From positions 3,995 to 67,994 of the forward strand of contig JAVJTC010000007.1 in assembly GCA_040219085.1 (NCBI GenBank): a stretch of 64,000 bases of DNA, written 5' to 3'. This document shows, one piece after another, positions 2,020 to 44,127 of the stretch; positions within the stretch are counted from its first letter, which is position 1, and every line of letters starts with the position of its first letter. A program made the translations under genes and the position numbers. The notes under the pieces are model-generated. The model worked only from the letters and a program-made list of their open reading frames with translations, did not search any database and was not told where the DNA came from. The DNA comes from Acidimicrobiales bacterium (lineage in GTDB: Bacteria > Actinomycetota > Acidimicrobiia > Acidimicrobiales > JAVJTC01).

Positions 2020-3126
2020 CTAGCGGCGGGCGGGACGGTCGCTGTTCATTCGCTGCTCGATGCGGTCTGCGATCTCGACGTCTCGGCGCTGCGAGGCTTG
2101 CAGGTAGCGCAGCGACGCGTCCGAGGAGGCGTGGCCCATTCTCGCCATGATCTCGCGTAGCGACGCTCCGGCGGTAGCCGCTGAGGTCCCGGCCAGGTGG
2201 CGCAGGTCATGGAAACGGGTGGCCTCGTCGATGCAGGCTTGTCGCAGAGCGCGTTTCCAGTGCGGTGCGAAGTAGCCGTTGAGCAGCGGGCCGTCCTTGA
2301 GCGAGGTGAACACGAGCGCATCAGGGCCGTCACTCACGAAGGCGCTCAGGTGCTCGTCGACCATGGCGGCTACAGCGGTGGGGATCACGACGCTGCGATG
2401 CGCCGCGGCGGACTTCGGCGGACCAAGAGTCGCGCCCTGTCCGCGGATGAATGTCAACGCCTGATCGACGCGCAGCGTCCGGGCGTCGATGTCGACGTGG
2501 CGGCGGGTGAGCCCGGTCAGCTCGCCGAAACGCAACCCTGAGGTGGCGGCGACCCACACCAGCGCGGCGAACCGGGGGAGGATCGCGTCCGCGATGGCTT
2601 CGATGTCGTCCCAGCCCAGGGGTGGCCGTTCGGTTGAGCGTTCCGAGGCGGCGCCTTTGATGTGGACCGGATTCACGCGGATGACCCCGTCGTCTACGGC
2701 GGTGTCGAGCATCGTGCGGAACAGTCGGTACACCTTGGCGACCGTATTGGGGTGCAGCCCGGACTGTGACAGGCGGCCGTGCCATGCCCGCACCGCCGAT
2801 GGCGTGATGCTGCGCAACTCGACCGACTCGAAGTCCGCCACGATGTGGGAGAGCTGAGAGGCATAGGTATCGCGGGTACGCGGACGAAGCTCGCGGCCCT
2901 CGAGCCAGCGAGTGGCGAAATCGCCGAAACGTTCCCGCCCACTCGATGGGTCGACATGGCGGCCCGCCACCAGATCGGTCTCTACTGAAGCCAGCCACGC
3001 ACGCGCTTCGGCTTTGGTCGCGAAAGTCGTATCGGCGGGCACCTGGTTCCCGAGATGCGAATACCGTGCCTGATAGCGCCCAGACGGGAGCTTACGGATG
3101 TTGCCGAAAGGCCTGCTCGTGCCCAT
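2020..3126 (-). CDS. int: Tyrosine-type site-specific integrase
   Basis: The N-terminus GNIRKLPSGRYQARY and SAM-like domain match actinophage/ICE integrases. The C-terminal catalytic region has ..GLRFGEL.., HDLRH.. and ..LGHAS....YL. Confidence 0.9.
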   Translation of the reverse strand: MGTSRPFGNIRKLPSGRYQARYSHLGNQVPADTTFATKAEARAWLASVETDLVAGRHVDPSSGRERFGDFATRWLEGRELRPRTRDTYASQLSHIVADFESVELRSITPSAVRAWHGRLSQSGLHPNTVAKVYRLFRTMLDTAVDDGVIRVNPVHIKGAASERSTERPPLGWDDIEAIADAILPRFAALVWVAATSGLRFGELTGLTRRHVDIDARTLRVDQALTFIRGQGATLGPPKSAAAHRSVVIPTAVAAMVDEHLSAFVSDGPDALVFTSLKDGPLLNGYFAPHWKRALRQACIDEATRFHDLRHLAGTSAATAGASLREIMARMGHASSDASLRYLQASQRRDVEIADRIEQRMNSDRPARR

Positions 3127-3233
3127 GCGCGCCTACTCTCGACCGACGTTCTAGGCGCACTCTAGGCACAAACGCCTCCGTCGCACCACGCTCAACCAGG
3201 CCAATAGGCCTTCTGACCTGCGATGTTACAGAG

Positions 3234-3304
3234 AGCGGGTGACGAGAATCGAACTCGCGTTCTCAGCTTGGGAAGCTGATGTTCTACCATTGAACTACAC
3301 CCGC
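3234..3304 (-). tRNA. tRNA-Gly (anticodon CCC)
   Basis: The reverse complement gcgggtgtagttcaatggtagaacatcagcttcccaagctgagaacgcgagttcgattctcgtcacccgct folds as a cloverleaf with anticodon loop ttCCCaa. Confidence 0.9.
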
Positions 3305-8824: not shown

Positions 8825-9387
8825 TCCTGTCCGACCGCACCATCCGCGAGTCCCTCGACGCCGGGCGTATCGAGATCGACCCGCTCGGCGACAACGCCGT
8901 GCAGCCCTCGTCGGTGGACCTGCGTCTCGACCGCTACTTCCGGGTCTTCCGCAACCACACGCTCGGCATGATCGACGTGAAGAAGAACCTCGAGGCGCTC
9001 ACCGAACCCGTCGAGATCACCGAGGAAGAGGCGTTCATACTCCACCCCGGGGAGTTCGTGCTCGGCTCGACGCTCGAACGTGTCCGCCTGCCCGACGATC
9101 TCGTCGCCCGCCTCGAGGGGAAGTCCAGCCTGGGGCGGCTCGGCCTGCTGATCCATTCCACCGCGGGCTTCGTGGACGCCGGCTGGAACGGCCAGCTCAC
9201 CCTCGAGTTGTCGAACGTCGCCAACCTGCCGATCACGCTGTACCCGACGATGAAGATCGGCCAGATCAGCTTCCTGCAGATGACCACCCCCGCCGACGTG
9301 CCCTACGGCGGGAAGTCGGTCGGCTCCAAGTACCAGGACCAGGTGGGTCCCGTACCGAGCCGTTACTGGGAGAACTTCGAGCGGTAG
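8821..9387 (+). CDS. dcd: dCTP deaminase
   Basis: [10 protein letters not shown]..., [42 protein letters not shown] overlap with the upstream gene. Confidence 0.9.
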
Positions 9388-9427
9388 CGCCCCGGTGCGA
9401 GACCAGCGAGGGCCGGCGCCCGGCGCC

Positions 9428-10060
9428 TCATGAGATGAGGCGCAGTCCGGAGTGACGGGTGGAGCGCAACCTCCCGACCCGCTCGCCGAGACGGTGGCGG
9501 CCCCCCGACAGCCACCAGAGGGCCACGATCCCGGCGAGCTCCAGCATGTGCGTCGTCTCGTCCAGCACCGTCGAGCTTCCCGTCGCGGCATCCACCACCC
9601 CGGTCACGAGGAACGTGACGCCCAGCGCCGACATCATCGGCACGAGTCCGATGGAGCGTTCCGGGCGCAACGCGGCGTAGCCGAATCCGATGGCAAGGGC
9701 CATGCCGAACGCCCCGAGATGACGCCCCACGTGGGGGGTCGCGCCCGCCTCGTCACCGGACACGAGCAGTGGGACGTTGAGCAGCACCAGGGTGGCCGCG
9801 ATCGAGCCGAGCGCAATCCGCACCCATTCGCCGCGCCCCGCGTCTGGAGCACCCGCTCGTCGCAGGACCGCGCTCGTGAGGTCGGGTATCTCGGCGACGG
9901 TGTTCATCACCGCTGCCCGGCGCAGAGCGTGGACCCGCTCCTCGAAATGGCGGCAGGTCGCGCACGAATCGAGGTGTTCGGTGAGGTGCAGGCCGTCGGC
10001 GGAGTCGACCTCCCCGTCGACCCTCGCGGAGATGAGCGCACGTGCGTCGGGACAGTCCAT
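9428..10060 (-). CDS. zf-HC2 anti-sigma factor with a multi-pass membrane C-terminal domain
   Basis: MDCPDARALISARVDGEV...HLDSCATCRHF carries the HxxxCxxC motif, followed by about four hydrophobic segments. The start was moved to ATG 10060 within the 9428..10288 ORF. Confidence 0.75.
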   Translation of the reverse strand: MDCPDARALISARVDGEVDSADGLHLTEHLDSCATCRHFEERVHALRRAAVMNTVAEIPDLTSAVLRRAGAPDAGRGEWVRIALGSIAATLVLLNVPLLVSGDEAGATPHVGRHLGAFGMALAIGFGYAALRPERSIGLVPMMSALGVTFLVTGVVDAATGSSTVLDETTHMLELAGIVALWWLSGGRHRLGERVGRLRSTRHSGLRLIS

Positions 10061-10116
10061 ATGGGAAAGGTCGTTCGGCGGTGGCGCCCGGTTCCCGACC
10101 GGGCAGAATCGATGTC

Positions 10117-10650
10117 GTGGATCGTGTAACCGAGCTGGCGCTCGCGGCGCGCGACGGGAACCGTCACGCGCTCGAGGAGTTCGTCCGTGTGACGCAGCGT
10201 TCCGTGTGGCTGCTGTGCCGCCACCTCGGGGATCCCGACACGGTCGAGGACCTCGTCCAGGACACGTATCTGAGGGCGCTGCGGTCACTGCCGCGATTCC
10301 GCAACGACGGTCCGGCCCGGGCCTGGCTCCTGCGCATCGCGCGCAACACGTGCGCCGACGCCACCCGCAGCCGTATCCGTCGCCGCCGGCGGATGGCGGA
10401 GGGGGAGGCGCCGGACACGCCCGTCGTCTCCGGCTCGTGGGAGGTCGTCGAGGACCTCCTGCGAGGCATCTCGGCGGAACGGCGGGAGGCGTTCGTACTC
10501 ACACAGTTCGTAGGCCTGTCCTACGCCGAAGCCGCTGCGGTCGCCGGTTGCGCCGTCGGGACCATTCGATCTCGAGTCTCGCGAGCGCGAGAGGACCTCC
10601 TGGCGCTTCTCGACGACGAGACCAGGGGAGCGACCGGCTCGTCCGGCTGA
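10117..10650 (+). CDS. ECF (sigma-70 group IV) RNA polymerase sigma factor
   Basis: Region 2 is DLVQDTYLRALRSLPRFR...ARAWLLRIARN. Region 4 is EAFVLTQFVGLSYAEAAAVAGCAVGTIRSRVSRARE. GTG start at 10117. Confidence 0.85.
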   Translation: MDRVTELALAARDGNRHALEEFVRVTQRSVWLLCRHLGDPDTVEDLVQDTYLRALRSLPRFRNDGPARAWLLRIARNTCADATRSRIRRRRRMAEGEAPDTPVVSGSWEVVEDLLRGISAERREAFVLTQFVGLSYAEAAAVAGCAVGTIRSRVSRAREDLLALLDDETRGATGSSG

Positions 10651-10739
10651 AGGTCCTTAGATCTCCGGGAACTCCTCCCGGCGTCCGGGCGACCTCTTCG
10701 TCGTGCGGCGACCGACGCCGTCGAAGGAGGAAGACCCCG

Positions 10740-11324
10740 ATGCGACGATTTCTCGTGCCACTGGTGCTCGTGGCACTGCTTGCCGCGGCCTGTGGCGACG
10801 ACGACTCGGAGACTTCGGCGGACCCGACCGCCACGCCGACGGCGACAGTCGCAACGAACGGGGACGGGTCACGGTCGGCGCTCGTGGTCACCGACGCCCG
10901 GTACCGCCGTGCCGGCGAGGGACTCGGCGCGGCGTACCTCGTCATCACGAACACCGGCGATGAGGCAGGCCGACTGTCCGCTGCTGCCTCGGGCGCAGCC
11001 GGGGAGGTCCAGTTGCACGAGACCGTCACCGATGACGACGGACTGATGGGGATGGTCGAAGTGCCCGAGGGATTCGAGATCCCGGGTGGCGGTGAGCTGA
11101 TCCTCGAACCCGGAGGCAAGCACCTCATGTTGATCGATCTCGCAGCGGACGCAGGAGGTCAGATCACGATCGAGTTGGTGATCGACGGTGACACGATCGC
11201 TGTCCCGTTCGCCTTCAGCGAGGAGCTCTCCGCGATGCCGGGCCACGACGGTGGCCAGTCGATGGAGGGCGGGTCTATGGACGATGGATCCATGGAGGAC
11301 GCGTCGATGGAGGACGGGCAGTGA
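10740..11324 (+). CDS. Copper chaperone PCu(A)C (DUF461), lipoprotein with a Met-rich tail
   Basis: Signal plus lipobox LLAAAC. LHETV...LMGMVEV...GGKHLMLIDL matches the H..M / HxM Cu(I) motif. The tail is SMEGGSMDDGSMEDASMEDGQ. RBS GAAGGAGG. Confidence 0.8.
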   Translation: MRRFLVPLVLVALLAAACGDDDSETSADPTATPTATVATNGDGSRSALVVTDARYRRAGEGLGAAYLVITNTGDEAGRLSAAASGAAGEVQLHETVTDDDGLMGMVEVPEGFEIPGGGELILEPGGKHLMLIDLAADAGGQITIELVIDGDTIAVPFAFSEELSAMPGHDGGQSMEGGSMDDGSMEDASMEDGQ

Positions 11325-12303
11325 CGGAGCGGCCGGTCCGCAGCAGCCCCGAGACGATGGCGATCACCCCCACGACGCCGGCCGCCGCTATGACGGCCCG
11401 GTCCAGTCCCGGGGGTGCGTCCGATGGGATGATCGCTCTCGAGAGGGCCTCGCGGCGCGTCCAGCTCCACAGGGCGAGCTCTGTCCCGGCCAGCGCGACG
11501 AACACTGCACTGACGCTGGGCGTCATTCGACCCCCGATGGTGAGTGCCACCAGGGCCGCTGCGAGGGCCGTTGCGGGCAGGGCCCAGAGCAGCAGCGATG
11601 GACTGGTCTCGGGGGGCACTGAGCGCACGGCCCACACGCCGGCCACGAGAGCGGCTGATGCGGTCACCGCCACCGTGGTGACGGTGCCTCTCCGCCCACC
11701 ACCCACCAGCACCGCCAAGGCCCCGAGGGCTAGGGCCGTTACTGCTCCCAGGACCGGAGGAACGATCGAAGGACCTGACAGAAGAGTCGAAATGACCGTC
11801 ACGCCCACGGCCCGGCCGTCGACCGTGAGCGGGACGACCGCCTCGAGGATCGTGTCGCCCGGTTCCGCTCCGGGGGGGCGGGCCGGGTTCATCCAGTGCG
11901 TGCGGTGATCGTGCCACGCGTAGCGGCCGTCAGAGGCGACGCGGCGCCACTCCGGCGCAGCATCAGGGTCGGCAGCAGGTGGGAGCTCGCGGTCGCCGAA
12001 ACGGTCCTCGTTCAGGTATATGCTCGGCGAACGCCGGTTCTCCTCGACGGTCCCGTCGGCGCCGAAACGCATGTAGGGCTCGCCTCGGTAGCCGACGACG
12101 ACGACCTCGGCTCCCGTCAGGTTGGTGAGTTCGAGGAAGCTGTCACCGCCGATGAACCTCAGCTCCAGCCCCTCGACTGCCGGCTCGACCGAGACGATCT
12201 CCGAGCGGTAGTCGGTCGGCCCGGCCGGGTCCGCAGCTGCTGGCCCGCCGATCGCCACGAGCGCCGCGCCGGCGATGAGCACGGCCACGGCGAACCGGGA
12301 CAT
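11275..12303 (-). CDS. Conserved membrane protein: secreted N-terminal domain plus about six TM helices (function unknown)
   Basis: Signal MSRFAVAVLIAGAALVAIGGPAAA, then DYRSEIVSVEP...YAWHDHRTHWM, then hydrophobic segments. It is the last gene of the overlapping operon. Confidence 0.6.
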   Translation of the reverse strand: MSRFAVAVLIAGAALVAIGGPAAADPAGPTDYRSEIVSVEPAVEGLELRFIGGDSFLELTNLTGAEVVVVGYRGEPYMRFGADGTVEENRRSPSIYLNEDRFGDRELPPAADPDAAPEWRRVASDGRYAWHDHRTHWMNPARPPGAEPGDTILEAVVPLTVDGRAVGVTVISTLLSGPSIVPPVLGAVTALALGALAVLVGGGRRGTVTTVAVTASAALVAGVWAVRSVPPETSPSLLLWALPATALAAALVALTIGGRMTPSVSAVFVALAGTELALWSWTRREALSRAIIPSDAPPGLDRAVIAAAGVVGVIAIVSGLLRTGRSVTARPPSTRPPWIHRP

Positions 12304-12304
12304 C

Positions 12305-12739
12305 TCAGCTGACCGTGACGACGATCTCACCACTCGGATGAACCGTGCAGATCCCGATGAACTCCCCGGCCGAACGGAAGCGTTGACGGAGTACCTCGCC
12401 CGCCCCGACGAAGAACGGGCCGATCAGATGGCCGCGGTCGTCCTCGTTCACGATCTCGATGACGTCGCCGACCGACATGTCGAGCTCCGCAGGGAGGATC
12501 TCGAGTGGCTCGCCGCGGTCGAAGGCTTCACCGGCCCCTTCGGGGATCACGTAGGACAACGTCGCAGCGTCCTCGGCGGCGGACTCGACGCCGAACGTGT
12601 CGGCCCCGCCGCCGCTACAGCCGACGAGTGCCACCGCGGCGACCATCACGGTCGCGAACGCGGCGGGTAGGACACGCCGTGGCGGTCCGGCGAGCCCCGA
12701 CCGCGGAGGTCCGCTGCCGAGGCGGTCAGGTGACGTCAC
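12305..12739 (-). CDS. Small lipoprotein, possibly cupredoxin-like (C-x2-H near the C-terminus)
   Basis: Lipobox ALVGCSG. ..DDRGHLIGPF.. and ..FIGICTVHPSGEIVV resemble a His...Cys-x2-His copper site. This is inference only. Confidence 0.5.
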   Translation of the reverse strand: MTSPDRLGSGPPRSGLAGPPRRVLPAAFATVMVAAVALVGCSGGGADTFGVESAAEDAATLSYVIPEGAGEAFDRGEPLEILPAELDMSVGDVIEIVNEDDRGHLIGPFFVGAGEVLRQRFRSAGEFIGICTVHPSGEIVVTVS

Positions 12740-13391
12740 CGAGGAGTGTCTCCATGTCGGTGGCGAGGTCTGCTCCCCGGGTGCCGAACGGCCAGGTCAC
12801 GACCAGTCGGCCCTCGTCGTCGACGGCGTACAGCGACCCGGTGTGGAGCACCTCGACGGCGCCGTCGGCGGTTGTGGCGACCTGGTAGTCGGCCCCGAAC
12901 CCGTCGGCCGCGGCACGCAGTGCCGCCTCGTCGGTGGTCCGCAGGGGATGCGCGTCGGGAATGAACGATCGTAGGTAGTCGGTGATGACGCGATCCGTGT
13001 CCCGATCCGGGTCGATGGTCGCCATTGCCACCTCGACCCGCTCGGCCAGCGACGCATCGAGCAGGGACAGGGCGTAGCGGATGTCTGCGAGCGTCGTGGG
13101 GCACACGTCGGGACACGACGTGTAGCCGAAGTAGACGAGTAGGAGCCCGTCCTCGTCCGCGCGGAACGGGAACGGCGCTGCTCGGGCGGTCACGTCGGGC
13201 AGGGAGAGTTCGCCGACGACGGGTGCCGGCGTCCGGACGAACCCGGTGAGTCCGCCGGTGTCGGCAGTGGTCGGCGAGTCGGCGGCGGAATCGGGTGGCG
13301 CGGCCCCGGTCGAGCGGGATTCCCCGCACGCGGCGACCGTTGTGAGGCCGAGAGCAACCACGGCCGGGGCGATGATCCGCAGCCCTCTCAT
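12726..13391 (-). CDS. SCO1/SenC family copper chaperone / thiol-disulfide oxidoreductase
   Basis: LLVYFGYTSCPDVCPTTL (CxxxCP motif), a downstream His (LHTGSLYAVD) and lipobox TVAAC. Confidence 0.85.
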   Translation of the reverse strand: MRGLRIIAPAVVALGLTTVAACGESRSTGAAPPDSAADSPTTADTGGLTGFVRTPAPVVGELSLPDVTARAAPFPFRADEDGLLLVYFGYTSCPDVCPTTLADIRYALSLLDASLAERVEVAMATIDPDRDTDRVITDYLRSFIPDAHPLRTTDEAALRAAADGFGADYQVATTADGAVEVLHTGSLYAVDDEGRLVVTWPFGTRGADLATDMETLLGDVT

Positions 13392-13792
13392 CTCAGCTCC
13401 AGGATGTAGGCCACCACCGCGTCCACCTCCCCGTCGGTGAGCACGTTCTCAGGCATCCGGACCGCGTACCCCTCGACGATGTCCGCGCCGGGTTCGGTGA
13501 TGGCCCGCCTCAGGTACGCCGGATCCGCCGCCGCCGTCGTGCCGTCCAACAGAGATACCTCTGACCCGGCAAGGCCGCGCCACGACGGGCCGACGCCGCC
13601 TTCGCCCGACTGGCCATGACACGACACACATCCCTGTGCCGCGGCGATCTGGCGTCCCTCCGCAGCGAGGGGACTGAGCGCGATGTCCTCGCCGGGGCCG
13701 CTTCCACAACCGAGGGCGACGGCGGCGAGGACGACGGCGAGGACGACGGCAGTACTGCGGAGGCGGGAGAGAGTCGGGCACCGGGAGGTCAC
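13388..13792 (-). CDS. Membrane-anchored/lipoprotein c-type cytochrome
   Basis: Single heme motif CVSCH. The distal Met region is VRMPEN. Lipobox-like ALGCGS. Confidence 0.8.
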   Translation of the reverse strand: MTSRCPTLSRLRSTAVVLAVVLAAVALGCGSGPGEDIALSPLAAEGRQIAAAQGCVSCHGQSGEGGVGPSWRGLAGSEVSLLDGTTAAADPAYLRRAITEPGADIVEGYAVRMPENVLTDGEVDAVVAYILELR

Positions 13793-15699
13793 TACGAAGT
13801 AGGTCGTCCCGCGCCGCTTCCCGGTTCCCGGCGCTGACGGTGCCGTTCGAGGCGGCGGGCCCCCGTCGCAACCAGGGGCCGGAAGTCGCCGTCGGTCATG
13901 ACCACGCCGTCGACGCAGTGGGTCTCGATCGTGCCGCCGCCGAACTGTTCGTCGTAGAGGCGGCGGTAGGCCCCGCCGGCCTCGACGAGCTCGTCGTGTG
14001 AGCCGGACTCGACGATCCGGCCGTCGTCCACGACGTGGATGACGTCGGCCGCACGGATGGTGGACAGCCTGTGCGCCACGGCGAGAGTCGTGCGACCCTC
14101 GACCAGTTCGGCCAGCGCCGCCTGGATGCGCCTCTCAGAGGCCGTGTCCAGCGCGGAGGTCGCCTCGTCGAGCACGAGGATGCGTGGGTCGTGCAACAGG
14201 ACGCGGGCGATGGCGATGCGTTGGCGTTCACCGCCCGAGAGTCGGAAGCCCCGCTCGCCGACGACGGTGTCGTAGCCGTCGTCGAACTCGACGATGCGGT
14301 CGTGAATCGCCGCGGCCCGCGCGGCCTTCTCCACGTCGGCGTCGGACGCGTCGGGTTGCGCGTAGGCGATGTTGGCCCGCAGCGTGTCGGCGAAGAGGTA
14401 GGACTCCTGGGTGACCACGCCGACGATGTCGGCCACCGACGCGAATGTGAGGTCCCGCAGGTCGACCCCGTCGATGGTGATGGCGCCGTCGGTCACGTCG
14501 TAGAGCCTCGGGACGAGGTTGAGGATCGTCGACTTGCCCGCGCCGGACGCACCGACGAACGCGACGAGTTCTCCCGGTCGGGCCTCGAAGTCGATCTCGT
14601 CGAGCGTCGGGACCGGCTCGCCCTCGCGGGTCTCGTAGTGGAACGACACGTTCTCGAAGGCCAGACGGCCGTGGACCTCGTCGCGCCGCAGCTCGGTGGC
14701 GCCGGGGCGCTCGACGACGTCGGGTTCGGTGTCGAGGTACTCGAAGACGCGTACGAACATCGCCTGCGAGGACTGGAGCTCGACGAAGGTCTCCAGCATC
14801 CGCGCCACGGGGAAGAACAGCCGGTTCTGAAGCGTGGTGACGGCGACGATCGTCCCCGCCGTCAGGTTCGTGCCGCCGTCGATGAGAAGCCCTGCGGCGA
14901 GATACACGGCCACCGGGGAGAGACCCAGGAACGCCTGGATGACCGTGAAGAACGCCTGGCCGATGACCTGTTGACGGGTGGCGACGTCGGCCACCTCGCG
15001 GTTGCGTGTCTCGAACCGGCGGATCTCACGGTCCGACCGGCCGAACAGCCGGGCGAGCGTGAACCCCGAGACCGACAACGTCTCGTTGGTCAGGACGTTC
15101 ATCTCGGCGATCGCGGCCTGGGACCGTCCTGTCAGCTCGCGGCGTCGCCGCCCCACCCAGCGCGTGGCCACCACGAACACCGGCACGGTCGCGAGGGAGA
15201 TGAGCGTCAGCTGCCACGAGAGGATCGTCAGTGCCGCGAGCGCTGCGAGGAAGGTGACGCCGTTGGACAGGATCGACGACATCGTCGTCGTCACCGCGGT
15301 CTGCACGCCCCCGACGTCGTTGGCTATCCGCGACTGGAGGTCACCGGTGCGCGACGTCGCATAGAACGACAGCGACAACGAGTGGAGGTGGGCGTACACG
15401 CGGTCACGCAGGTCACGCAGGACGTGTTGGCCGAGGACGTTGGTCACCCACGTCTGCCACACGCCCAGACCGGTCGACGCGATGGTGATCGCCACCATCG
15501 CCACGGTGAGGACCCACAGGAGGCCGATGTCGGGCCCGCCGGTGTCGGGGAACAGGGCGTCGTCGAACACGACGCGGATGAGCAGCGGATTGACGACGCC
15601 GAGCAGCGATGTCGTGAGGACCAGGCCGAGCACGAGTGCGACCTGCCCGCGGTGGACCGCGAACAGCCCGATGACGCGCTTCCAGCTGAATCCGCTCAT
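13792..15699 (-). CDS. ABC exporter, fused permease-ATPase (MsbA/CydDC-like half transporter)
   Basis: Six-TM N-terminal domain, Walker A GASGAGKST, signature LSGGERQR and Walker B ILVLDEATSALD. Confidence 0.9.
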   Translation of the reverse strand: MSGFSWKRVIGLFAVHRGQVALVLGLVLTTSLLGVVNPLLIRVVFDDALFPDTGGPDIGLLWVLTVAMVAITIASTGLGVWQTWVTNVLGQHVLRDLRDRVYAHLHSLSLSFYATSRTGDLQSRIANDVGGVQTAVTTTMSSILSNGVTFLAALAALTILSWQLTLISLATVPVFVVATRWVGRRRRELTGRSQAAIAEMNVLTNETLSVSGFTLARLFGRSDREIRRFETRNREVADVATRQQVIGQAFFTVIQAFLGLSPVAVYLAAGLLIDGGTNLTAGTIVAVTTLQNRLFFPVARMLETFVELQSSQAMFVRVFEYLDTEPDVVERPGATELRRDEVHGRLAFENVSFHYETREGEPVPTLDEIDFEARPGELVAFVGASGAGKSTILNLVPRLYDVTDGAITIDGVDLRDLTFASVADIVGVVTQESYLFADTLRANIAYAQPDASDADVEKAARAAAIHDRIVEFDDGYDTVVGERGFRLSGGERQRIAIARVLLHDPRILVLDEATSALDTASERRIQAALAELVEGRTTLAVAHRLSTIRAADVIHVVDDGRIVESGSHDELVEAGGAYRRLYDEQFGGGTIETHCVDGVVMTDGDFRPLVATGARRLERHRQRREPGSGAGRPTS

Positions 15700-15776
15700 C
15701 GGGCGACCCTACCCAGGGGTGCCCGATGAGGTGCCGTCGGAGGTGGTCCCGTCAGGGCGACGCGACCGGCCCGGGC

Positions 15777-18479
15777 TCAGTCCTCGTCGGTGTCGTCAGC
15801 GAGTTCGCGGGCCTGGATGACCCAGTTCCACTTCCGGATCCGCCCGGGCACGCCGAGGGTCTTCTCGAGTTCGATGACGGCGGCCTCGTCCATCGACGCG
15901 ATCTGTTCGAACGACGTGATACCCGTACCGGCGAGGGCCTTGAGGACGATCGGGTCGGTGCCCTTGATGCGGCTCAGGTCGTCGTGGTGTACCGGCGCAG
16001 CAGCGGGGGCGGCCTCGGCTTCCTCGGGCGCACCGGCGGCCTCGCCGGCGGAGGTGTCCGGCTCGTCGCCGCCGAGGGACACGTCGGTCGGCGGCGACCC
16101 CTCATGGTCCGGCTCGTCCTGGCCGTTGGAGGGCGCGGGGACGGCGGTGTCGGGCAGTGGGGCGACGGGGTCGGGTTCGAGGGTTGCGACCGGTGACGCC
16201 TGGCGCATGCCGAAGCCGAGGGGCCCCTCCAGTTCGGCCTCGGGCCGCACCCGGCTGGCGGCCGGCACGAGACGTTCCTCGTCGGCGGCCTTCTCGCCCT
16301 CCTCGATCGCCTCGAGGAGGTGCATGGCGATGTCGGCGACCTTGACCTGGTCGTCCTCGACGCCCTCACCCTTCACGCCGTCGTCGATCATCACGTAGCA
16401 GAACGGGCAGGCCGTGGCGATGCGCGACGCACCGGTTGCGAGCAGTTCCTGGGAGCGTTCGACGTTGACCGCCTTGCCGACGTGCTCCTCCATCCACATG
16501 CGTGCGCCGCCGGCGCCGCAACACATCCCCTCGGTCCCGTTGCGGCCGGCTTCGACGATCTCGAGCCCACCGATGGAGCCGACGACCTTGCGGGGCGCGA
16601 GGTAGACGTCGTTGTGGCGACCCAGGTAGCACGAGTCGTGGTAGACGAGGCGCTCGTCGAGGCGGGCTTCGGTCATGTCCAGGCGCCCGTCGGCGACGAG
16701 CCCCTCGAGGAACTGGCTGTGGTGGACCACTTCGTAGTGGCCACCGAGCTGCGGGTACTCGTTGGCGAGGGTGTTGAAGCAGTGCGGGCACTGGGTGACG
16801 ATCTTGCGGACGCCCATCGTGTTGAGCGTCTCGACGTTCTGCATCGCCAGCATCTGGAAGATGTACTCGTTACCGGAGCGTCGGGCGGGATCGCCGGTGC
16901 ACATCTCGGCGGGGCCGAGGATGGCGAAGTCCACGCCGGCGCGCTGCATCAGCTTGGCCATGGCCGTGGAGACCTTGCGGTTCTTGTCGTCGAAGCTGCC
17001 GGCGCAGCCCACCCAGTAGAGGTACTCGGCGTCGAAGGGGTCGCCGCCGTCGAGGACGCGGATGCCCTCGAGGTCGCCGACCCAGTCCGCCCGTTCGCCC
17101 TGGGACATCCCCCACGGGTTCCCCGAGTTCTCCATCGAGCGGTAGGCGGCGCCCAACTCGGTGGGGAAGTCGCTCTCCATGAGCGAGAGGTAGCGGCGCA
17201 TGTCGAGGATCTTGTCGAGGATCTCGATGTTGACCGGGCAGGCCTCGTCACATGCCTTGCACGACGTGCACGCCCACACCTCCTCGGAGGTGATCCGCTC
17301 GAACACGTTGTTCGCGCCGATCGTGATCTCCGGGTCGGTGCCGAGCGGCGGCGACGTCGGAGGGGTGCCGGTGGCGGCCATGACCTCGCCGGTCTTGAGG
17401 ACGATCTCGCGGGGGTCGAGGGACTTGCCGGTGGCGTGTGCAGGACACACGGCGGTGCACCGGCCACACATCGTGCACGAGTCCGTGTCGAGCAGTTGCT
17501 TCCAGGTGAAGTCCTCGATGGCGACCGCGCCGAACGATTCGAGTTCGGTCTCCATCAGGTTGCCCATAGGCCGCATCGCACCCTTGGGGCGCTCACGGTC
17601 CCGCAGATACATGTTCAGGGGCGAGGTGAACATGTGCCGCAGCATGGTGACGGGCAGGATCAACAGGAAGACGATGAACGAGACGACGTGGGCGATCCAC
17701 CAGGCCTGGTGCCAACCAGCCAGGTTGTCGAGGCCGTCGACGGTGGTGGCGAGCGGGTAGCCGATGACCGACCACTTCTCGAAGTCCGGCGTGCCGTTCT
17801 CGGCGATGCGGAAGACCTCGGCACCGAAGCCGGTGACGCCGATCAGAAGGAACGTGCCGAGGATGACGGCGTGTTCGGGCTTGGACTTGATGCGGATGCG
17901 GTACGGCCGCATGGGGCGGGGTCCGTAGCGCCGGCCGATCGCCCAGAGCACACCGATCAGGAAGATCGCCCCGGCGATGTCGCCGACAGCGGAGTAGCCC
18001 TGGTACACGCGACCGTGGAGGAACTTGGCTGAGTCGGGTAGCTGGTGGTCGATCTCGAGGGTCGTCGTCACGGCGAGCAGGACGAGGAACCCGAAGTAGA
18101 TCATCGAGTGCATGATCCCGGCGACGGGCTCACGCATGAGCGTCTGCATGTACACGCCGGCGCGGAAGTCGGCCAGGCGGCGCTTCACGTTGCGTGGCGT
18201 GGTGGACCGGTTGTCGGGCGCGCCGCGTTCCCAGTTGGCGACGCGGTTCGCGAACAGCACGGCGCCGACGACGATCAACACGGGGATCACCGTGTAGAAC
18301 GCGGCTTTGAGCGGACTCGGGATGTTCCCGAAGACCTTGCGCGTGATGTCGGAGTCGCTTTCGAATCCGAGGGCGGTGGAGACGATCCCCGAGGCCGCGG
18401 TGAACGCGGCGACGGCGACGCCGAAGGCGATGACGACGTGGCGGGGCTTGACCGCTCGTCCGGAGTTCTCTGTGGTCAT
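15777..18479 (-). CDS. Membrane-bound (Fe-S)-binding reductase (HdrD/GlpC-like, Rv0338c-like) with an acidic linker and a C-terminal helix-hairpin-helix-like domain
   Basis: N-terminal TM helices, CTMCGRCTAVCP and CTSCKACDEACP (2x[4Fe-4S]), and two CCG-type Cys-rich domains (CPHCFNTL, CCGAGG). The C-terminus reads DDLSRIKGTDPIVLKALAGTGITSFEQIA. The start was moved to ATG 18479. Confidence 0.8.
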   Translation of the reverse strand: MTTENSGRAVKPRHVVIAFGVAVAAFTAASGIVSTALGFESDSDITRKVFGNIPSPLKAAFYTVIPVLIVVGAVLFANRVANWERGAPDNRSTTPRNVKRRLADFRAGVYMQTLMREPVAGIMHSMIYFGFLVLLAVTTTLEIDHQLPDSAKFLHGRVYQGYSAVGDIAGAIFLIGVLWAIGRRYGPRPMRPYRIRIKSKPEHAVILGTFLLIGVTGFGAEVFRIAENGTPDFEKWSVIGYPLATTVDGLDNLAGWHQAWWIAHVVSFIVFLLILPVTMLRHMFTSPLNMYLRDRERPKGAMRPMGNLMETELESFGAVAIEDFTWKQLLDTDSCTMCGRCTAVCPAHATGKSLDPREIVLKTGEVMAATGTPPTSPPLGTDPEITIGANNVFERITSEEVWACTSCKACDEACPVNIEILDKILDMRRYLSLMESDFPTELGAAYRSMENSGNPWGMSQGERADWVGDLEGIRVLDGGDPFDAEYLYWVGCAGSFDDKNRKVSTAMAKLMQRAGVDFAILGPAEMCTGDPARRSGNEYIFQMLAMQNVETLNTMGVRKIVTQCPHCFNTLANEYPQLGGHYEVVHHSQFLEGLVADGRLDMTEARLDERLVYHDSCYLGRHNDVYLAPRKVVGSIGGLEIVEAGRNGTEGMCCGAGGARMWMEEHVGKAVNVERSQELLATGASRIATACPFCYVMIDDGVKGEGVEDDQVKVADIAMHLLEAIEEGEKAADEERLVPAASRVRPEAELEGPLGFGMRQASPVATLEPDPVAPLPDTAVPAPSNGQDEPDHEGSPPTDVSLGGDEPDTSAGEAAGAPEEAEAAPAAAPVHHDDLSRIKGTDPIVLKALAGTGITSFEQIASMDEAAVIELEKTLGVPGRIRKWNWVIQARELADDTDED

Positions 18480-18679
18480 GGCGTTGGCGAGGCTAGTTGC
18501 CGCGGGCGCCGTCGGCGGAATCGCGGCGCCTTGCTTGTAGGAACGCGCCGGCGACAACCGCTGACGCCCGGCCGGGGCGCAGCCCGGGCGGAGGATGTGC
18601 ACGGCGTACCGCGTGGGGTCCGAACGAGTTCACGATCCGGAAACACTCGCGAAAAACGGTCGTCCTACCTTCTGAGGCC

Positions 18680-19283: not shown

Positions 19284-20684
19284 GTGAGACGCAAGCTTGC
19301 GATCGGTGCCACCGCATCGATTGTCACGATGTTCCTCCTGACGGTCCCCGCGGCCGCTCAGGAAGACGGAACAGACCTACAACCGATCATCGACAACATG
19401 TGGGTGTTCATCGCAGGGATCATGGTGTTCTTGATGCAGGCCGGTTTCGGCCTCGTCGAGGCCGGCATGACCAGGGCGAAGAACGTCGCCAACATCATGG
19501 CGAAGAACCTCGCTGACATGTCGATCGGTGTCATCGCCTTCTGGGCGGTGGGATTCGGTTTCGCGTACGGCGCGGACTCGGGCAACATCATCGGCACCGA
19601 CGGTTTCTTCCTCTCGGGAGCCCCGATCGGTATCGACGGTGGCCTGTCGATCTGGACCGACTTCTTCTTCCAGGTCGTGTTCGCCGCCACCGCCGTGACG
19701 ATCGCGTCGGGAGCCATGGCCGAGCGCACGAAGTTCAGCGGCTACCTGATCTTCTCCGCGCTGATGACGGCGTTCATCTACCCCGTCGTCGTCCACTGGT
19801 TCTGGGGCGGTGGTCTGATCGCCAAGATGGAGGTCGGCGACGCCGTCTTCAGTGACTTCGCCGGCTCCACGATCGTGCACTCGACCGGTGGCTGGGCGGC
19901 GCTCATGGGCGCCTACTTCCTCGGTCCACGTATCGGGAAGTACGACGAGAACGGCAACCCGCGGGCGATTCCGGGCCACAACATGGCCTACACCATCATC
20001 GGTGTGTTCATCCTCTGGTTCGGCTGGTTCGGGTTCAACCCCGGCTCTCAGCTGGGCATGGACGAGGTCGTCGCCCGTGCCGGTGTGACCACGCTGCTCG
20101 CGGCAGCCGCCGGTGGCCTCTCGGCCGGTGCGGTCGTGTGGTTGAAGACCGGACGTATGGAAGTCGGCATGGCCGGCAACGGCGTGCTCGCGGGCCTGGT
20201 GTCCATCACCGCCGGTACCGCGGCGATGAACACCATGGGAGCCTTCGTCACCGGTCTCATCGGTGGCGCGATCGTGGTGTTCGCCGTCCTGTTCATCGAC
20301 CGGATCGGCATCGACGATCCCGTCGGCGCCATCTCCGTGCACGGCATCTGCGGCGTGTGGGGAACCCTCGCCGTCGGTCTGTTCGCGGTCTACGACGACG
20401 GCTTCCTGGGACGGGCCGAGGCCGGCCTCTTCTATGGTGGCGGTATCGAGCAGCTGCTCGTGCAGCTCTTCGGTGCGCTGATCGTGTTCGCCTTCGTGGT
20501 GGTCGCAGCCGGCATCGTCTTCTTCACGCTGAAGAAGCTCAACCTCCTGCGGGTCACCCCGGAAGAGGAGATGCAGGGTCTCGACGTCATGGAGCACGGC
20601 TCGCCGGGCTACAACAACGACACGGTCACCGTGGGCAGCCACGGCATCCCGGAGACCGCCCCCAACACCAAGCTGCGGCTCTAG
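19284..20684 (+). CDS. amtB: Ammonium transporter AmtB (with signal peptide)
   Basis: AGFGLVEAGMTRAKN, FAATAVTIASGAMAER, DFAGSTIVHSTGGWAAL and ISVHGICGVWGTLAVGLF. GTG start after AAGGAGGGAAGG. Confidence 0.92.
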   Translation: MRRKLAIGATASIVTMFLLTVPAAAQEDGTDLQPIIDNMWVFIAGIMVFLMQAGFGLVEAGMTRAKNVANIMAKNLADMSIGVIAFWAVGFGFAYGADSGNIIGTDGFFLSGAPIGIDGGLSIWTDFFFQVVFAATAVTIASGAMAERTKFSGYLIFSALMTAFIYPVVVHWFWGGGLIAKMEVGDAVFSDFAGSTIVHSTGGWAALMGAYFLGPRIGKYDENGNPRAIPGHNMAYTIIGVFILWFGWFGFNPGSQLGMDEVVARAGVTTLLAAAAGGLSAGAVVWLKTGRMEVGMAGNGVLAGLVSITAGTAAMNTMGAFVTGLIGGAIVVFAVLFIDRIGIDDPVGAISVHGICGVWGTLAVGLFAVYDDGFLGRAEAGLFYGGGIEQLLVQLFGALIVFAFVVVAAGIVFFTLKKLNLLRVTPEEEMQGLDVMEHGSPGYNNDTVTVGSHGIPETAPNTKLRL

Positions 20685-20693
20685 GAGGACGAG

Positions 20694-21035
20694 ATGTTGC
20701 ACATGATCACAGCGATCATCAGACCCCACAATGTGGAGACCGTGAAGGACGCGCTGCGAGAGCAGGGAATCCAGGGCATGACGGTCACCGAGGTCAAGGG
20801 ATACGGCCGCCAGGGCGGTCACACCGAGACCTACCGTGGTGCCGAGTACACCGTGGACTTCATGCCGAAGGCCAAGATCGAGATCCTCGCGGAGAGCGAT
20901 CAGGCCGACCTGGTGGTCCAGACCATCTCCGACGCTGCCCGTTCAGGGAAGATCGGCGACGGAAAGATCTGGGTCACCTCCGTGGACCGCGCAGTGCGGA
21001 TCCGCACCGGCGAGATGGGTTCCGAAGCCGTCTAG
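20694..21035 (+). CDS. glnK: P-II nitrogen regulatory protein GlnK
   Basis: ITAIIRP...VKDAL...GMTVTEVKGYGRQGGHTETYRGAEY (T-loop Tyr) ...IGDGKIWV. Confidence 0.92.
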   Translation: MLHMITAIIRPHNVETVKDALREQGIQGMTVTEVKGYGRQGGHTETYRGAEYTVDFMPKAKIEILAESDQADLVVQTISDAARSGKIGDGKIWVTSVDRAVRIRTGEMGSEAV

Positions 21036-30382: not shown

Positions 30383-30393
30383 AAGATGATGTG

Positions 30394-30466
30394 TGGTCGG
30401 GACCGGCGTCGATCCGGTGACCTTCCGCTTTTCAGGCGGACGCTCTGCCAACTGAGCTACCCGACC
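30394..30466 (-). tRNA. tRNA-Phe (anticodon GAA)
   Basis: The reverse complement is ggtcgggtagctcagttggcagagcgtccgcctgaaaagcggaaggtcaccggatcgacgccggtcccgacca. Anticodon loop ctGAAaa. Confidence 0.9.
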
Positions 30467-30486
30467 GGGACCGGTACGGAACCGGT

Positions 30487-30564
30487 GTGGCGGTCCTGAC
30501 GGGATTTGAACCCGCGACCTCCGCCTTGACAGGGCGGCGTGCACTCCAGACTGCACTACAGGAC
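30487..30564 (-). tRNA. tRNA-Asp (anticodon GTC), CCA encoded
   Basis: The reverse complement is ggtcctgtagtgcagtctggagtgcacgccgccctgtcaaggcggaggtcgcgggttcaaatcccgtcaggaccgcca. Anticodon loop ctGTCaa. Confidence 0.9.
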
Positions 30565-30644
30565 CGTAGAGCCGTCACACTGTACCAACCGCGCGCCCGA
30601 CACCAATCTTCGAACTCGGCGAATCGCGCAGAAACCCCGGTGGT

Positions 30645-31148
30645 TCAGCCCGTGAAGCCGATTGCGGGGACCTGGACAGCTGCGGCGCCGACCCAGACGT
30701 ACTCCCATGCCTCGGGGTTGGGGCCCTGTTGCGCGACACCGGGCGGATACGACGGGACGAAGCCGAAGCGGCGGGCATTGGTGTAGTCGTCGGCGCTCAG
30801 CCACGCGAACGCGGCTGTCGACTCGAACTGGGCGAAGCGCTCCGTTCCCTCGGAGATGTCGACCGCGTAGTCGCGCCCGACCGCCATCGTCCGGAGCCGC
30901 TCGTCGGCGGTCGGATCGCCGGTGCTGGTCGGGGCGGCGGTCTGAGCCTCGGTCCCCGCGAGTGGCCCGTCGTCGAACAGCGACACGTAGCGGGCGTTGT
31001 CGACGGGCTCGATCGCCACGTCGCCGTCGATCAGTTCCTCGGTGGCGGCGATGAGCGGCGCGATCACCGCCGCCAGCATGGCCAGCACGATGATGACGGC
31101 GAATACGGCCGCCATCGCTCTGCGTCTGTCGCGTCGCATCGGGCCCAC
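30645..31148 (-). CDS. Membrane-anchored hypothetical protein located inside the tRNA cluster
   Basis: The N-terminus RRDRRRAMAAVFAVIIVLAMLAAVIAPLIAA is followed by a soluble domain. GC3-rich codons. No family recognised. Confidence 0.5.
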   Translation of the reverse strand: MGPMRRDRRRAMAAVFAVIIVLAMLAAVIAPLIAATEELIDGDVAIEPVDNARYVSLFDDGPLAGTEAQTAAPTSTGDPTADERLRTMAVGRDYAVDISEGTERFAQFESTAAFAWLSADDYTNARRFGFVPSYPPGVAQQGPNPEAWEYVWVGAAAVQVPAIGFTG

Positions 31149-31167
31149 CCCTGGCGTGTGTTCGGCG

Positions 31168-31240
31168 CACCCCCAACGGGATTCGAACCCGTGTTACCGC
31201 CTTGAAAGGGCGGCGTCCTAGGCCGCTGGACGATGGGGGC
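31168..31240 (-). tRNA. tRNA-Glu (anticodon TTC)
   Basis: The reverse complement is gcccccatcgtccagcggcctaggacgccgccctttcaaggcggtaacacgggttcgaatcccgttgggggtg. Anticodon loop ctTTCaa. Confidence 0.9.
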
Positions 31241-36492: not shown

Positions 36493-38229
36493 ATGACTGC
36501 CACCGACACCGCCACCTCTGAGACCACCGACCCGGCCACACGGCCGGACGATGAGGTCTCCCCTACCCGCAACCCGGTCGACGCCTTCGTGTCGGTCCTC
36601 ACGACGGGTGATCACAAGGTCGTCGGCCGGCTCTGGATCGTCATGTCGCTGCTGGTCGGGGGATTCACGCTCGTCCTCGGCGCCCTCGTCGGCATCGAGC
36701 GCACCGACACCGCGGGTGTCGACGTCTTCGCAGGGCTCGAGGCCTACCTCCAGTTCTCGACGCTCTACCGGGTTCTGCTCGTGTTCGGATTCGTCGTGCC
36801 GCTGTTCATCGGCCTGGCCACGTACCTCGTTCCGCTGCAGATCGGTTCGCCGTCGGTGGCGTTCCCCCGGGCGGCGGCGGCTGCGTTCTGGGCGTGGCTG
36901 GTCGGCCTCGGCACCCTGATCACCGCCTGGGCACTCGACGGGGGCCTCGTCCCCGGTGGCGAGCCCGAGGCGGTCGAACTCTCGCTGCTGGCCTTCGGCG
37001 CCACGGTGATCGCACTTCTGCTGGCGGCGGCCGTCATCGTGACCACGGTGTTCACCCAGCGGGCCGAGGGCATGACGATGGACCGGGTGCCCCTGTTCTC
37101 GTGGTCGATGGTGGTCGCCGGTGGCCTCTGGGTGCTCTCGCTGCCGGTACTTCTCGCCAATCTCGGCGTCGCCTGGATCGACATCCGGGGCGAGGGCCCC
37201 ACGCTCTACGGCAACGGCGAGAACCTGTGGGGTCAGGTCGAGTGGGCCTTCGACCAGCCGCAGGTGTTCGCCTACCTGATCCCGGCGCTGGGCGTCATCG
37301 GTGAGGTGTTCGTCTCGGCCTTCCGGGCCCGCCAGCCGCTGCACTTCGTGATGCAGGGAGCGATCGGTGCGGTGGGCGTGCTCAGCTTCGGCGCCTACGC
37401 GCAGACGTTCTTCAACCCCACCGCCGACACCACGCCGCCGTACGTCGTGGCCGGAGTCGCCATCGCTCTGCCGGTGCTCGTTCTCCTCGGCGGTTGGGCC
37501 ACGCTCGCCCGTGACGCGGGCGGCCGGCCCACCCCCTCGCCCCAACTCGGGTTCGCTGTCGCGACCGTCCTCGCCGTGCTGGCAGCGGTAGCGGTCGGTG
37601 TCGTGAAGGTGCTCGGCGGACTGCTGGGCTTCCTGCGGGAGTTCGGCGCCGACACACAGAGTTGGCAGGCCGATCTCGACGACTTCCTCGACCCGTTCGA
37701 GGACCTGCGGGGCTCGGCCATCGAGTCGGGGCTGCTGAACGTCGTCGTGCTCGCCGGGTTCATCGGTGCGGTCGCCGGCCTGTACCACTGGGCACCCAAA
37801 CTCTTCGGCCGCCGCCTCAACCCGCTCGTGGGCGGTCTCGCGGCGCTGCTGATCCTCGTGGGGACACTCGCACTCGTGGTGCCCGATGTGATCACCGGGT
37901 TCATGGACCAGCCCGATCCGCTCGCGGCGGGATTCCCGCTCCTCGGAGACTTCCGTGACGGCGTCGAGATCCTCAACGCGATCTCGATGATCGGCGCCTT
38001 CGTGGTGTTCGCCGGACTCGCCCTGGTCGCTCTCGACGTACTCGGTGCCATCGCCGTGCCCGGAGCGGGCGACGGCGACGATGCCGACGACCTCGGTGGT
38101 GTCACTCTCGAGTGGTCCACCACCAACCCGCCGCCGCCGGGCAACTTCGCAGCGGCTCCGGTGGTACGGAGCGAGGCGCCGCTTCTCGATCCGCCCGCCG
38201 GGGACGCGACCGACGGGGAGGACGCCTGA
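36493..38229 (+). CDS. Heme-copper oxidase subunit I-like protein lacking all canonical heme/CuB ligands
   Basis: Collinear similarity to the window's own CtaD: [16 protein letters not shown] vs [44 protein letters not shown] vs [39 protein letters not shown] vs GLYFWWPKMFG. Ligand positions are Y, Q, F, Q and T, and there is no HFH motif. Confidence 0.8.
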   Translation: [578 protein letters not shown]

Positions 38230-43794: not shown

Positions 43795-44127
43795 ATGACC
43801 GCCACCGACGTCGAGCACGCTGAAAGCCACGAGGACGGCCACGCGCATCCCTCGGACTGGGACTACGCGCGTATCGCACTGATCCTGGGTGTCCTCACGG
43901 CCATCGAGGTCTTCACGTACTTCGAGTCGGTTCACAATCTCGGCACGAACGCGCTGCGGGTGATCCTGGTCGTGTTGATGGTGCTGAAGTTCGTCTACGT
44001 CGGTGCATGGTTCATGCACCTCAAGTTCGACAAGCCGATCCTGCGCAACCTCTTCGTCATGGGGCTGAGTCTCTCGTTGCTCGTGTACCTGGGGATGTTG
44101 ACGGCGTTCCGGGTCTGGCCCACCTGA
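43795..44127 (+). CDS. ctaF: Cytochrome c oxidase subunit IV (prokaryotic COX4/CtaF type)
   Basis: About 110 aa with three TM helices. LVVLMVLKFVYVGAWFMHLKFD is typical of COX4_pro. Confidence 0.8.
   Translation: MTATDVEHAESHEDGHAHPSDWDYARIALILGVLTAIEVFTYFESVHNLGTNALRVILVVLMVLKFVYVGAWFMHLKFDKPILRNLFVMGLSLSLLVYLGMLTAFRVWPT

Follow-up and report, generated by a model that had tools for sequence, protein, structure and literature searches.

Locus organization and gene content

A 64-kb window (the whole stretch of DNA analyzed, 64,000 nucleotides [nt] at ~69% GC, on a contig from an Acidimicrobiales metagenome-assembled genome [MAG]) was examined at a point where an ATP-binding cassette (ABC) exporter gene runs into genes for a c-type cytochrome, the copper chaperone Sco, a cupredoxin-fold lipoprotein and an uncharacterized membrane protein. 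The locus probably consists of two units that are adjacent by chance: the ABC gene, and a 4.46-kb self-regulated cassette that also encodes the copper chaperone PCuAC, an extracytoplasmic function (ECF) sigma factor and an anti-sigma factor. The favored interpretation of the cassette is a self-contained ECF regulon for copper acquisition and for metallation of the CuA center of a caa3 oxidase. The features of the locus, with their Pfam matches, were as follows.

15699-13792, minus strand: ABC half-transporter, MsbA-like (PF00664 ABC_membrane, 8.6e-40; PF00005 ABC_tran, 1e-29)
13792-13388, minus strand: class I c-type cytochrome, probable lipoprotein (PF00034 Cytochrom_C, 8e-10)
13391-12726, minus strand: Sco/SenC copper chaperone lipoprotein (PF02630 SCO1-SenC, 4e-24)
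12739-12305, minus strand: cupredoxin-fold lipoprotein of 144 amino acids (aa) (no Pfam match; fold from AlphaFold2 [AF2] and Foldseek)
12303-11275, minus strand: uncharacterized membrane protein, 342 aa (no Pfam match)
10740-11324, plus strand: PCuAC copper chaperone lipoprotein (PF04314, 4.5e-25)
10042-10650, plus strand: SigC-like ECF sigma factor, likely true start GTG at 10117 (PF04542/PF08281)
9428-10060, minus strand: ZAS-type anti-sigma factor (PF13490, 5e-7)
9380-13837: whole cassette (anti-sigma factor, sigma factor, PCuAC, membrane protein, cupredoxin, Sco, cytochrome c and the cytochrome c promoter), missing at this position in two close relatives

The coordinates of the five minus-strand open reading frames (ORFs) gave exactly the junctions claimed in the original prediction: the TAG of the ABC gene and the GTG of the cytochrome c gene have one base in common (1-nt overlap), cytochrome c and Sco overlap by 4 nt (ATGA), Sco and the cupredoxin lipoprotein overlap by 14 nt, and a 1-nt gap separates the lipoprotein gene from the membrane protein gene. 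NCBI calls for the lipoprotein (P0001, 144 aa) and the membrane protein (P0121, 342 aa) have identical starts, and exact protein matches to genes of the window carry locus tags RIE08_0268x. The PCuAC gene, which is convergent with the membrane protein gene and overlaps its 3′ end by 50 nt, and the ECF sigma/anti-sigma pair (9428-10650) had been overlooked earlier and were found by Pfam. The proposal that all five minus-strand genes form one coupled operon stood for the last four and not for the ABC gene. Tight junctions between the last four genes recur in L081, the closest relative of the module (4-nt overlap, 4-nt overlap and 11-nt gap), while the 1-nt ABC/cytochrome c overlap is conserved in no other locus. 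The cytochrome c, Sco, cupredoxin and membrane protein genes are thus predicted to form one translationally coupled operon.

Insertion of the cassette beside the ABC exporter gene

Nine local proteins were mapped by tblastn onto 80 loci from different GTDB species, each encoding a relative of the membrane protein. An MsbA-like ABC gene was beside the module in none of the 80, and the sole five ABC matches among these loci covered the nucleotide-binding domain (NBD) alone, at 26-35% identity. L081 has a methyltransferase gene upstream of cytochrome c in place of the ABC gene. MsbA-like ABC orthologs themselves are widespread in Acidimicrobiia; they were abundant at 65-96% identity, with unrelated and variable neighbors.

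Two of these orthologs mark the edges of the cassette. L083, whose ABC protein is 96% identical to that of the window, showed 92% nt identity to window positions 16079-13838 and then continued directly with 9379-7586 (blastn). In L087 (ABC protein 83% identical), the ABC stop runs straight into the 3′ end of dcd. In both loci, the ABC gene is directly convergent with dcd and the whole cassette is absent. Because L083 and L087 join ABC to dcd directly, the 4,458 bp at 9380-13837, which here lie between these two genes, are an insertion. At its C-terminus, the ABC protein agrees with that of L083 as far as 'GARRLER' and diverges beyond it, which indicates that the last ~15 ABC codons are cassette DNA and include the cytochrome c promoter (13828-13803, inside the ABC ORF, within the insertion and 9 nt from its edge). 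The 1-nt overlap exists because the ABC frame reads into the insertion as far as the first in-frame stop. The cassette ends showed no direct or inverted repeat of at least 9 nt and no adjacent integrase.

The ABC exporter had been described as hard-wired into the unit; with the linkage found in 0 of 80 related loci and ABC abutting dcd in the two cassette-free relatives, this description is refuted by the criterion that the original prediction itself had set, lack of conserved linkage in related genomes. Its functional form, a coupled operon of five genes in which the exporter would provide the envelope proteins with a thiol, heme or copper ligand, is largely refuted by synteny and was considered very improbable. 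The stop/start overlap and the lack of a terminator consensus between the two genes, which makes read-through likely here, speak for it, as does the activation of cydABDC, ABC exporter included, by Corynebacterium sigma-C (PMC7337898). However, the linkage is missing from all 80 related loci and from the nearest relatives, the junction was made by insertion with cassette DNA as the ABC tail, and no ECF promoter motif was found upstream of ABC. The gene product has the type-I architecture of MsbA and CydDC exporters (an ABC_membrane domain with six transmembrane [TM] helices plus NBD), but it scored below every NCBIfam equivalog cutoff (MsbA, 429.8 versus 602; CydD, 253 versus 435; CydC, 250 versus 329) and is encoded by a single gene that is unlinked to the module in other genomes. 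When the CydDC arrangement was looked for, neither a second half-transporter gene nor cydAB was present at the ABC gene.

A gap of 77 nt separates ABC from the gene directly upstream (15777-18602, minus strand). The 941-aa product of that gene is a fusion in which a NarI-like membrane domain is combined with 4Fe-4S dicluster domains and with two CCG domains of the HdrD/DsrK-like kind, and it ends in a C-terminal tail similar to those, rich in Ala, Pro and Glu, of some L21 and phasin proteins. ABC may in reality share an operon with this NarI/4Fe-4S/CCG fusion gene.

Conservation of the module in related loci

Gene content was counted in the 71 of the 80 loci that had enough upstream sequence. 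The cupredoxin gene was immediately upstream of the membrane protein gene in 65/71, Sco was present in 64/71, cytochrome c was present upstream of Sco in 52/71, and an ECF sigma gene lay ≤4.5 kb from the membrane protein gene in 60/71. L081, with a cupredoxin 75% identical to that of the window, has the same cytochrome c-Sco-cupredoxin-membrane protein series, then convergent PCuAC and sigma genes, then the anti-sigma gene. ORFs between the membrane protein and sigma genes that tblastn had missed encoded PCuAC in all eight cases tested (86-97 bits), and a count with hidden Markov models (HMMs) found PCuAC no more than ~4 kb away in 31/63 loci. The cassette is conserved in Acidimicrobiia. A TlpA-like redoxin lipoprotein (WCxPC) is encoded between the membrane protein gene and PCuAC in L004 (11132-11668, minus strand) and L034 (5154-5672, minus strand); redoxin-like ORFs, some of which may be unrelated, were within ~4 kb in 18/63 loci (HMM).

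An Ilumatobacter-type variant without cytochrome c (L011, L030, L035, L041, L044, L056, L065 and L076) has the order sigma-Sco-cupredoxin-membrane protein-PCuAC, with PCuAC on the same strand as the membrane protein gene. The MAG MFD09779.bin.2.202 carries two copies of the cytochrome c-containing module on different contigs (L015 and L023). Three database proteins that looked like cupredoxin-membrane protein or Sco-membrane protein (Rosetta-stone) fusions (P0220, P0311 and P0329) were rejected as gene-calling artifacts, since their reading frames are shifted or merged and contain Arg-rich junk segments.

Promoters, sigma factor and anti-sigma factor

Three ECF promoters of the sigma-C type were located in the cassette.

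13828-13803, minus strand: GGAAC-N17-CGAC, 10 nt before the cytochrome c GTG
10668-10693, plus strand: before PCuAC
10095-10070, minus strand: 9 nt before the anti-sigma ATG

The N17 motif was matched five times in the 64-kb window versus 1.9 expected, and three of the five matches are those at the cytochrome c, PCuAC and anti-sigma starts; other GGAAC-N15-19-CGAC matches in the window occurred at about the chance rate, none preceding a gene start. Among related loci, 57/71 had GGAAC-N16-18-CGAC within -250 to +60 of the first core gene. Counted by the gene that it precedes, the motif was present in 47/57 loci for cytochrome c, 57/60 for the anti-sigma gene (in most of them 7-8 nt from the start codon), 18/21 for PCuAC, 17/70 for Sco (where Sco comes first), 3/71 for cupredoxin, 2/63 for the sigma gene and 0/79 for the membrane protein gene. 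With spacers of 16-18 nt allowed, 135 of 139 sites had 17 nt, and the 139 sites gave the extended consensus CGGGAACC-N-CGACC. Because the promoter lies 9 nt from the ATG here and mostly 7-8 nt from the start codon in related loci, the anti-sigma mRNA would be leaderless.

The cassette motif GGGAAC-N17-CGAC equals the sigma-C consensus of Corynebacterium glutamicum (-35 GGGAACT, -10 CGACTA; PMC5483222). Sigma-C of C. glutamicum is activated by copper deprivation or by defects of the aa3 oxidase (PMC7337898), and the regulon with which the cassette shares its promoter consensus is linked to the status of copper and of the respiratory chain (PMC5483222, PMC7337898). Searched against NCBIfam, the cassette sigma factor gave its top score with an unnamed equivalog, PRK12535 (3.3e-45; 154 bits versus a cutoff of 290); mycobacterial SigC, PRK09649 (1.6e-41), was second best overall and the best model that names a sigma factor. 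We infer that the cassette promoters are recognized by the cassette sigma factor.

The anti-sigma factor has a ZAS motif, H29-x3-C33-x2-C36, conserved in 60 sequences (PF13490, 30.1 bits versus 22.2). Its C-terminal half is a four-TM domain in which H110, R113, H114, D157, E168, H171 and E174 are conserved in the same 60-sequence alignment, and this domain is a plausible candidate for a metal- or redox-sensing module. No anti-sigma factor is known for sigma-C. The C. glutamicum regulon thus differs from the cassette, which has an adjacent membrane ZAS anti-sigma factor, and it also differs in its targets: cydABDC and ctaA there; Sco, PCuAC, cytochrome c, cupredoxin and the membrane protein here.

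Copper chaperones, cytochrome c and the caa3 oxidase

The cytochrome c has the heme motif CVSCH and a distal Met. Sco scored 85.5 bits against PF02630 (cutoff 22.8), and its translation contains CPDVC and a downstream 'LHTG', that is, the CxxxC plus distal His that define the Sco copper-ligand motif (PMC9145763). PCuAC scored 88.1 bits against PF04314 (cutoff 29.4); H93, M103, M105, H128 and M130 were invariant in nine sequences, with spacings (H-x9/x11-M and M-x22-H) that are 1-2 residues off the canonical H(M)X10MX21HXM. The window PCuAC ends in a Met/Asp-rich C-terminal tail (SMEGGSMDDGSMEDASMEDGQ). In homologs from other loci, among them L004 (11625-12254, minus strand) and L007 (9481-10089, minus strand), the domain is interrupted by long inserts rich in Met, Asp and Glu; the L004 protein contains nine tandem 'MADTGE' repeats.

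Sco, PCuAC and TlpA are established CuA-assembly proteins (PMC9145763), and CopCD and YcnI are copper-acquisition proteins (PMC8424229). A caa3 oxidase operon lies 26 kb from the cassette.

39484-41061, plus strand: COX2 fused to cytochrome c (caa3 subunit II)
41111-43138, plus strand: COX1
43131-43754, plus strand: COX3
43795-44127, plus strand: COX4 (COX4_pro)
44129-45115, plus strand: Caa3_CtaG assembly factor

This operon is likely the client of the Sco/PCuAC cassette. The original suggestion that Sco and cytochrome c serve copper delivery to oxidase CuA gained support from the co-encoded PCuAC, the TlpA-like redoxin of some loci and the caa3 operon in the window. A second, divergent COX1-like gene is present at 36493-38229.

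Copper-stress defense was weighed as another role for the same genes and was considered unlikely: the ECF pair would sense excess envelope copper, and the cassette would sequester, oxidize or buffer copper outside the membrane (the cupredoxin being CopI-like, PCuAC and Sco serving as buffers) rather than supply the oxidase. All products are predicted to be outward-facing copper binders, which suits defense, and yet the genes that accompany them are the canonical three of CuA assembly (Sco, PCuAC and TlpA) and those of copper uptake (CopCD and YcnI). The Met/Asp-rich inserts and tails of PCuAC are typical of copper-scavenging or resistance proteins; however, no CopA, CsoR, CopZ or multicopper oxidase was found beside the module when the nine window proteins were mapped by tblastn in the 80 loci, and the same genes were absent from the Pfam-annotated genes of eleven loci (L081-L086, L088-L090, L092 and L093; L087 and L091 added no flanking gene with a domain call to that survey). 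The conserved His/Asp/Glu residues of the anti-sigma membrane domain could bind metal, and copper-responsive ECF sigma factors exist, such as CorE in Myxococcus. Against this, the promoter matches that of sigma-C, and it is a lack of copper rather than an excess that induces the sigma-C regulon (PMC7337898).

Cupredoxin lipoprotein

A cupredoxin-type site had been suspected in the lipoprotein (12305-12739), and structure prediction bore this out, giving a cupredoxin fold with His/Cys/His ligands and with the axial Met absent. The AF2 model had a predicted local distance difference test (pLDDT) score >90 for residues 60-144 (block means 92-97), and Foldseek matched it to purple cupredoxin 5fc9, amicyanin, plastocyanin and CuA domains (E to 1e-6; probability 1.0 for the first three). 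The family profile aligned H104, C131 and H134 with the type-1 copper ligands of 9cck and amicyanin. The family comprises 851 detected homologs, some labeled 'plastocyanin' by their sources. Among 30 aligned sequences, H104 and C131 were invariant, H134 was present in 29, and all contained the motif C-T-V-H-P-S-G-E/Q; none had an axial Met after the second His, the place being taken by G137-E/Q138. Pfam matches were below threshold: PF00127 in 17/30 members (best E 0.0012) and PF13473 in 8/30. The lipoprotein is therefore modeled as a cupredoxin fold, not a canonical blue copper site. It shares its fold and the His...Cys-x2-His pattern with amicyanin, plastocyanin and the purple cupredoxin Nmar_1307 of N. 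maritimus (5fc9), and it differs from them in being lipid-anchored, in having Gly-Glu/Gln for the axial Met, and in being always paired with the membrane protein.

An alternative electron-transfer branch was also weighed, in which cytochrome c and the cupredoxin are mobile carriers to a terminal oxidase, Sco is accessory and the membrane protein is an anchor. The nearest folds are those of amicyanin and plastocyanin, both electron carriers, the cupredoxin is co-translated with a class I cytochrome c, and a lipo-cupredoxin is known in Streptomyces (cited in PMC3603459). Such a branch was nonetheless considered improbable, since no member has the axial Met that electron-transfer type-1 sites contain, about one quarter of the modules lack cytochrome c and yet keep Sco, cupredoxin and membrane protein, the cupredoxin-membrane protein pair follows CopC without a cytochrome in L093, and the caa3 subunit II has its own fused cytochrome c.

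The membrane protein family

The membrane protein (11275-12303) had been described as a signal peptide plus six TM helices. The signal peptide held: it is cleavable and is followed by a conserved mature N-terminus, A-D-P-A-G-P-T-D-Y. The helix count did not, as the AF2 model (pLDDT 89.9, predicted template-modeling score 0.84) has five TM helices, placed after an extracytoplasmic beta-sandwich (residues 25-175) that contains an invariant W130-H-D-H-R-x-H-W-M138. Two outward loops, SVPxETGPS and IPxDxPxxLDR, are conserved. Because the TM helices are without conserved metal ligands, a membrane-anchored platform for binding and hand-off is favored over a transporter.

Sequence, profile and fold comparisons found no relative in Pfam, NCBIfam or PDB, and a Pfam scan of 47 family members gave no significant family. 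Three weak matches were set aside. Foldseek with the full AF2 model returned pentameric ligand-gated channels (TM-score ~0.2, E >0.01), a superficial likeness of beta-sandwich plus helices. CcmH was matched weakly in 11 of the 47 members (best E 0.027), which was insufficient, though recurrent and fitting a cytochrome-biogenesis theme, and SURF1_Mycobac of NCBIfam (E 0.045) was likewise insufficient; these weak cytochrome-biogenesis matches cover residues 106-166. Comparison by hhalign with DUF1775 (1.5%), PCuAC and cupredoxin gave probabilities <2% each, and no homology to CopC or CopD was detected, as tested through Pfam alone (47 members).

The family contains 2,659 clusters at 50% identity (E ≤ 1e-3) and extends outside Acidimicrobiia, for example to Nitriliruptor; distant members have a 'PTNY' N-terminus. 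It is recurrently linked to copper genes across independent contexts. In L089, a CopC-CopD fusion gene is followed by DUF1775 (YcnI-like) and a member of the family, divergent from Sco-DsbA-VKOR; the order is CopC-CopD, member, DUF1775 in L090 and L091, and DUF1775, member in L092. L093 has a CopC protein gene, a 114-aa cupredoxin homolog (hhalign probability 99.8%) and then a member, with no cytochrome. One distant member lies right behind an ECF sigma/zf-HC2 anti-sigma pair, the genes overlapping. Two distant members, P0358 (613 aa, L089 6001-7842) and P0337 (522 aa, Nitriliruptor sp.), have a C-terminal extension with several added TM helices, and P0358 has a further extracytoplasmic domain as well.

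Proposed mechanism

In the proposed mechanism, the SigC-like sigma factor would be held by the membrane ZAS anti-sigma factor. The signal would probably be that the copper supply or the oxidase is failing, as with sigma-C of Corynebacterium, upon which the anti-sigma factor would free the sigma factor. The freed sigma factor would fire the three GGGAAC-N17-CGAC promoters, driving PCuAC, the cytochrome c-Sco-cupredoxin-membrane protein operon and, as negative feedback, the anti-sigma gene. All products would face outward and work as a copper relay. Copper would be captured by the membrane protein, through its His/Met-rich beta-sandwich, and by the partner cupredoxin, in the place held by CopC/CopD/YcnI elsewhere in actinobacteria; cytochrome c and the cupredoxin would set the Cu(II)/Cu(I) state; and Sco and PCuAC would metallate CuA of caa3 subunit II (39484-41061).

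Several points weigh against this account of the locus. The assignment of function in Acidimicrobiia is built on gene association and motifs, and sequence does not tell copper lack from copper excess as the inducing signal. The sigma factor falls under the SigC equivalog cutoff (142 versus 219 bits), and the TM helices of the membrane protein contain no conserved His, Met or Cys, so that a transport role is not indicated. L083 and L087, on which the insertion boundaries depend, are short metagenomic contigs. A sigma-70 promoter and terminator scan of 9300-16100 gave no match and is uninformative at 70% GC; as no terminator was found between ABC and cytochrome c, read-through co-transcription in this genome is likely.

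A more speculative proposal, put forward tentatively, is that the cupredoxin and the WHDHRxHWM protein may together be a new machine of Actinomycetota, with two components that capture copper and hand it off, a counterpart of CopC/CopD-YcnI without homology to it, and that the four-TM ZAS anti-sigma factor may be the missing sensor that tells a sigma-C-type factor of failing copper supply to the oxidase.

Relation to known copper operons

A literature search found no account of the module, of the cupredoxin lipoprotein family or of the membrane protein family. The nearest described systems are the Streptomyces sco operon (Sco, the PCuAC-like ECuC and a CopCD-type protein) and the copC/PCuAC copper-deprivation genes of C. 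glutamicum, in which actinobacterial Sco and/or PCuAC likewise accompany an extracytoplasmic copper-binding protein and a polytopic membrane protein, and which serve aa3/caa3 oxidase maturation (PMC3603459, PMC9145763). Compared with these systems, the cassette has the cupredoxin lipoprotein and the non-homologous beta-sandwich/five-TM protein in place of CopC/CopD, and it adds a c-type cytochrome and dedicated ECF sigma/anti-sigma control. The Bacillus subtilis ycnKJI and Bradyrhizobium pcuABCDE operons (CopC-CopD, YcnI/DUF1775 and PCuAC; PMC8424229) have PCuAC in common with the cassette, and distant members of the membrane protein family stand inside CopC-CopD plus DUF1775 operons (L089, L090 and L092). 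The Acidimicrobiia cassette, in contrast, is without CopC, CopD and DUF1775 genes, and its membrane protein showed homology to none of these (CopC and CopD compared through Pfam, DUF1775 by hhalign as well). What is known, then, are Sco/PCuAC copper-delivery operons; what is new is their packaging as a portable sigma-C-like regulon with two uncharacterized families.

Other features of the window

A phage-type integrase gene (2020-3126) adjoins tRNA-Gly(ccc) (3233-3304) on the minus strand (2020-3304); this arrangement is typical of an integration site and suggests that an element has integrated at the window's left end. An ammonium transporter gene followed by a PII-like gene (19284-21035, plus strand) was identified from translation alone. 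Genes for tRNA-Phe, tRNA-Asp and tRNA-Glu are clustered at 30393-31240 (minus strand), and Rfam detected tRNAs only.

Significance

Copper delivery to the outer side of the membrane and the loading of CuA and CuB in Gram-positive bacteria and actinobacteria are understood only in part, with components that vary by phylum (PMC9145763). The locus offers a cautionary case, in which a 1-nt stop/start overlap came from an insertion and not from functional coupling. The cassette itself would be a compact portable regulon whose regulator, promoters and effectors can all be identified from sequence. It brings forward two widespread uncharacterized families with strong, independent genomic links to copper handling, and its anti-sigma factor is a candidate for the partner that does the sensing for a sigma-C-like factor; in Corynebacterium, the signal for such a factor is still a matter of speculation.

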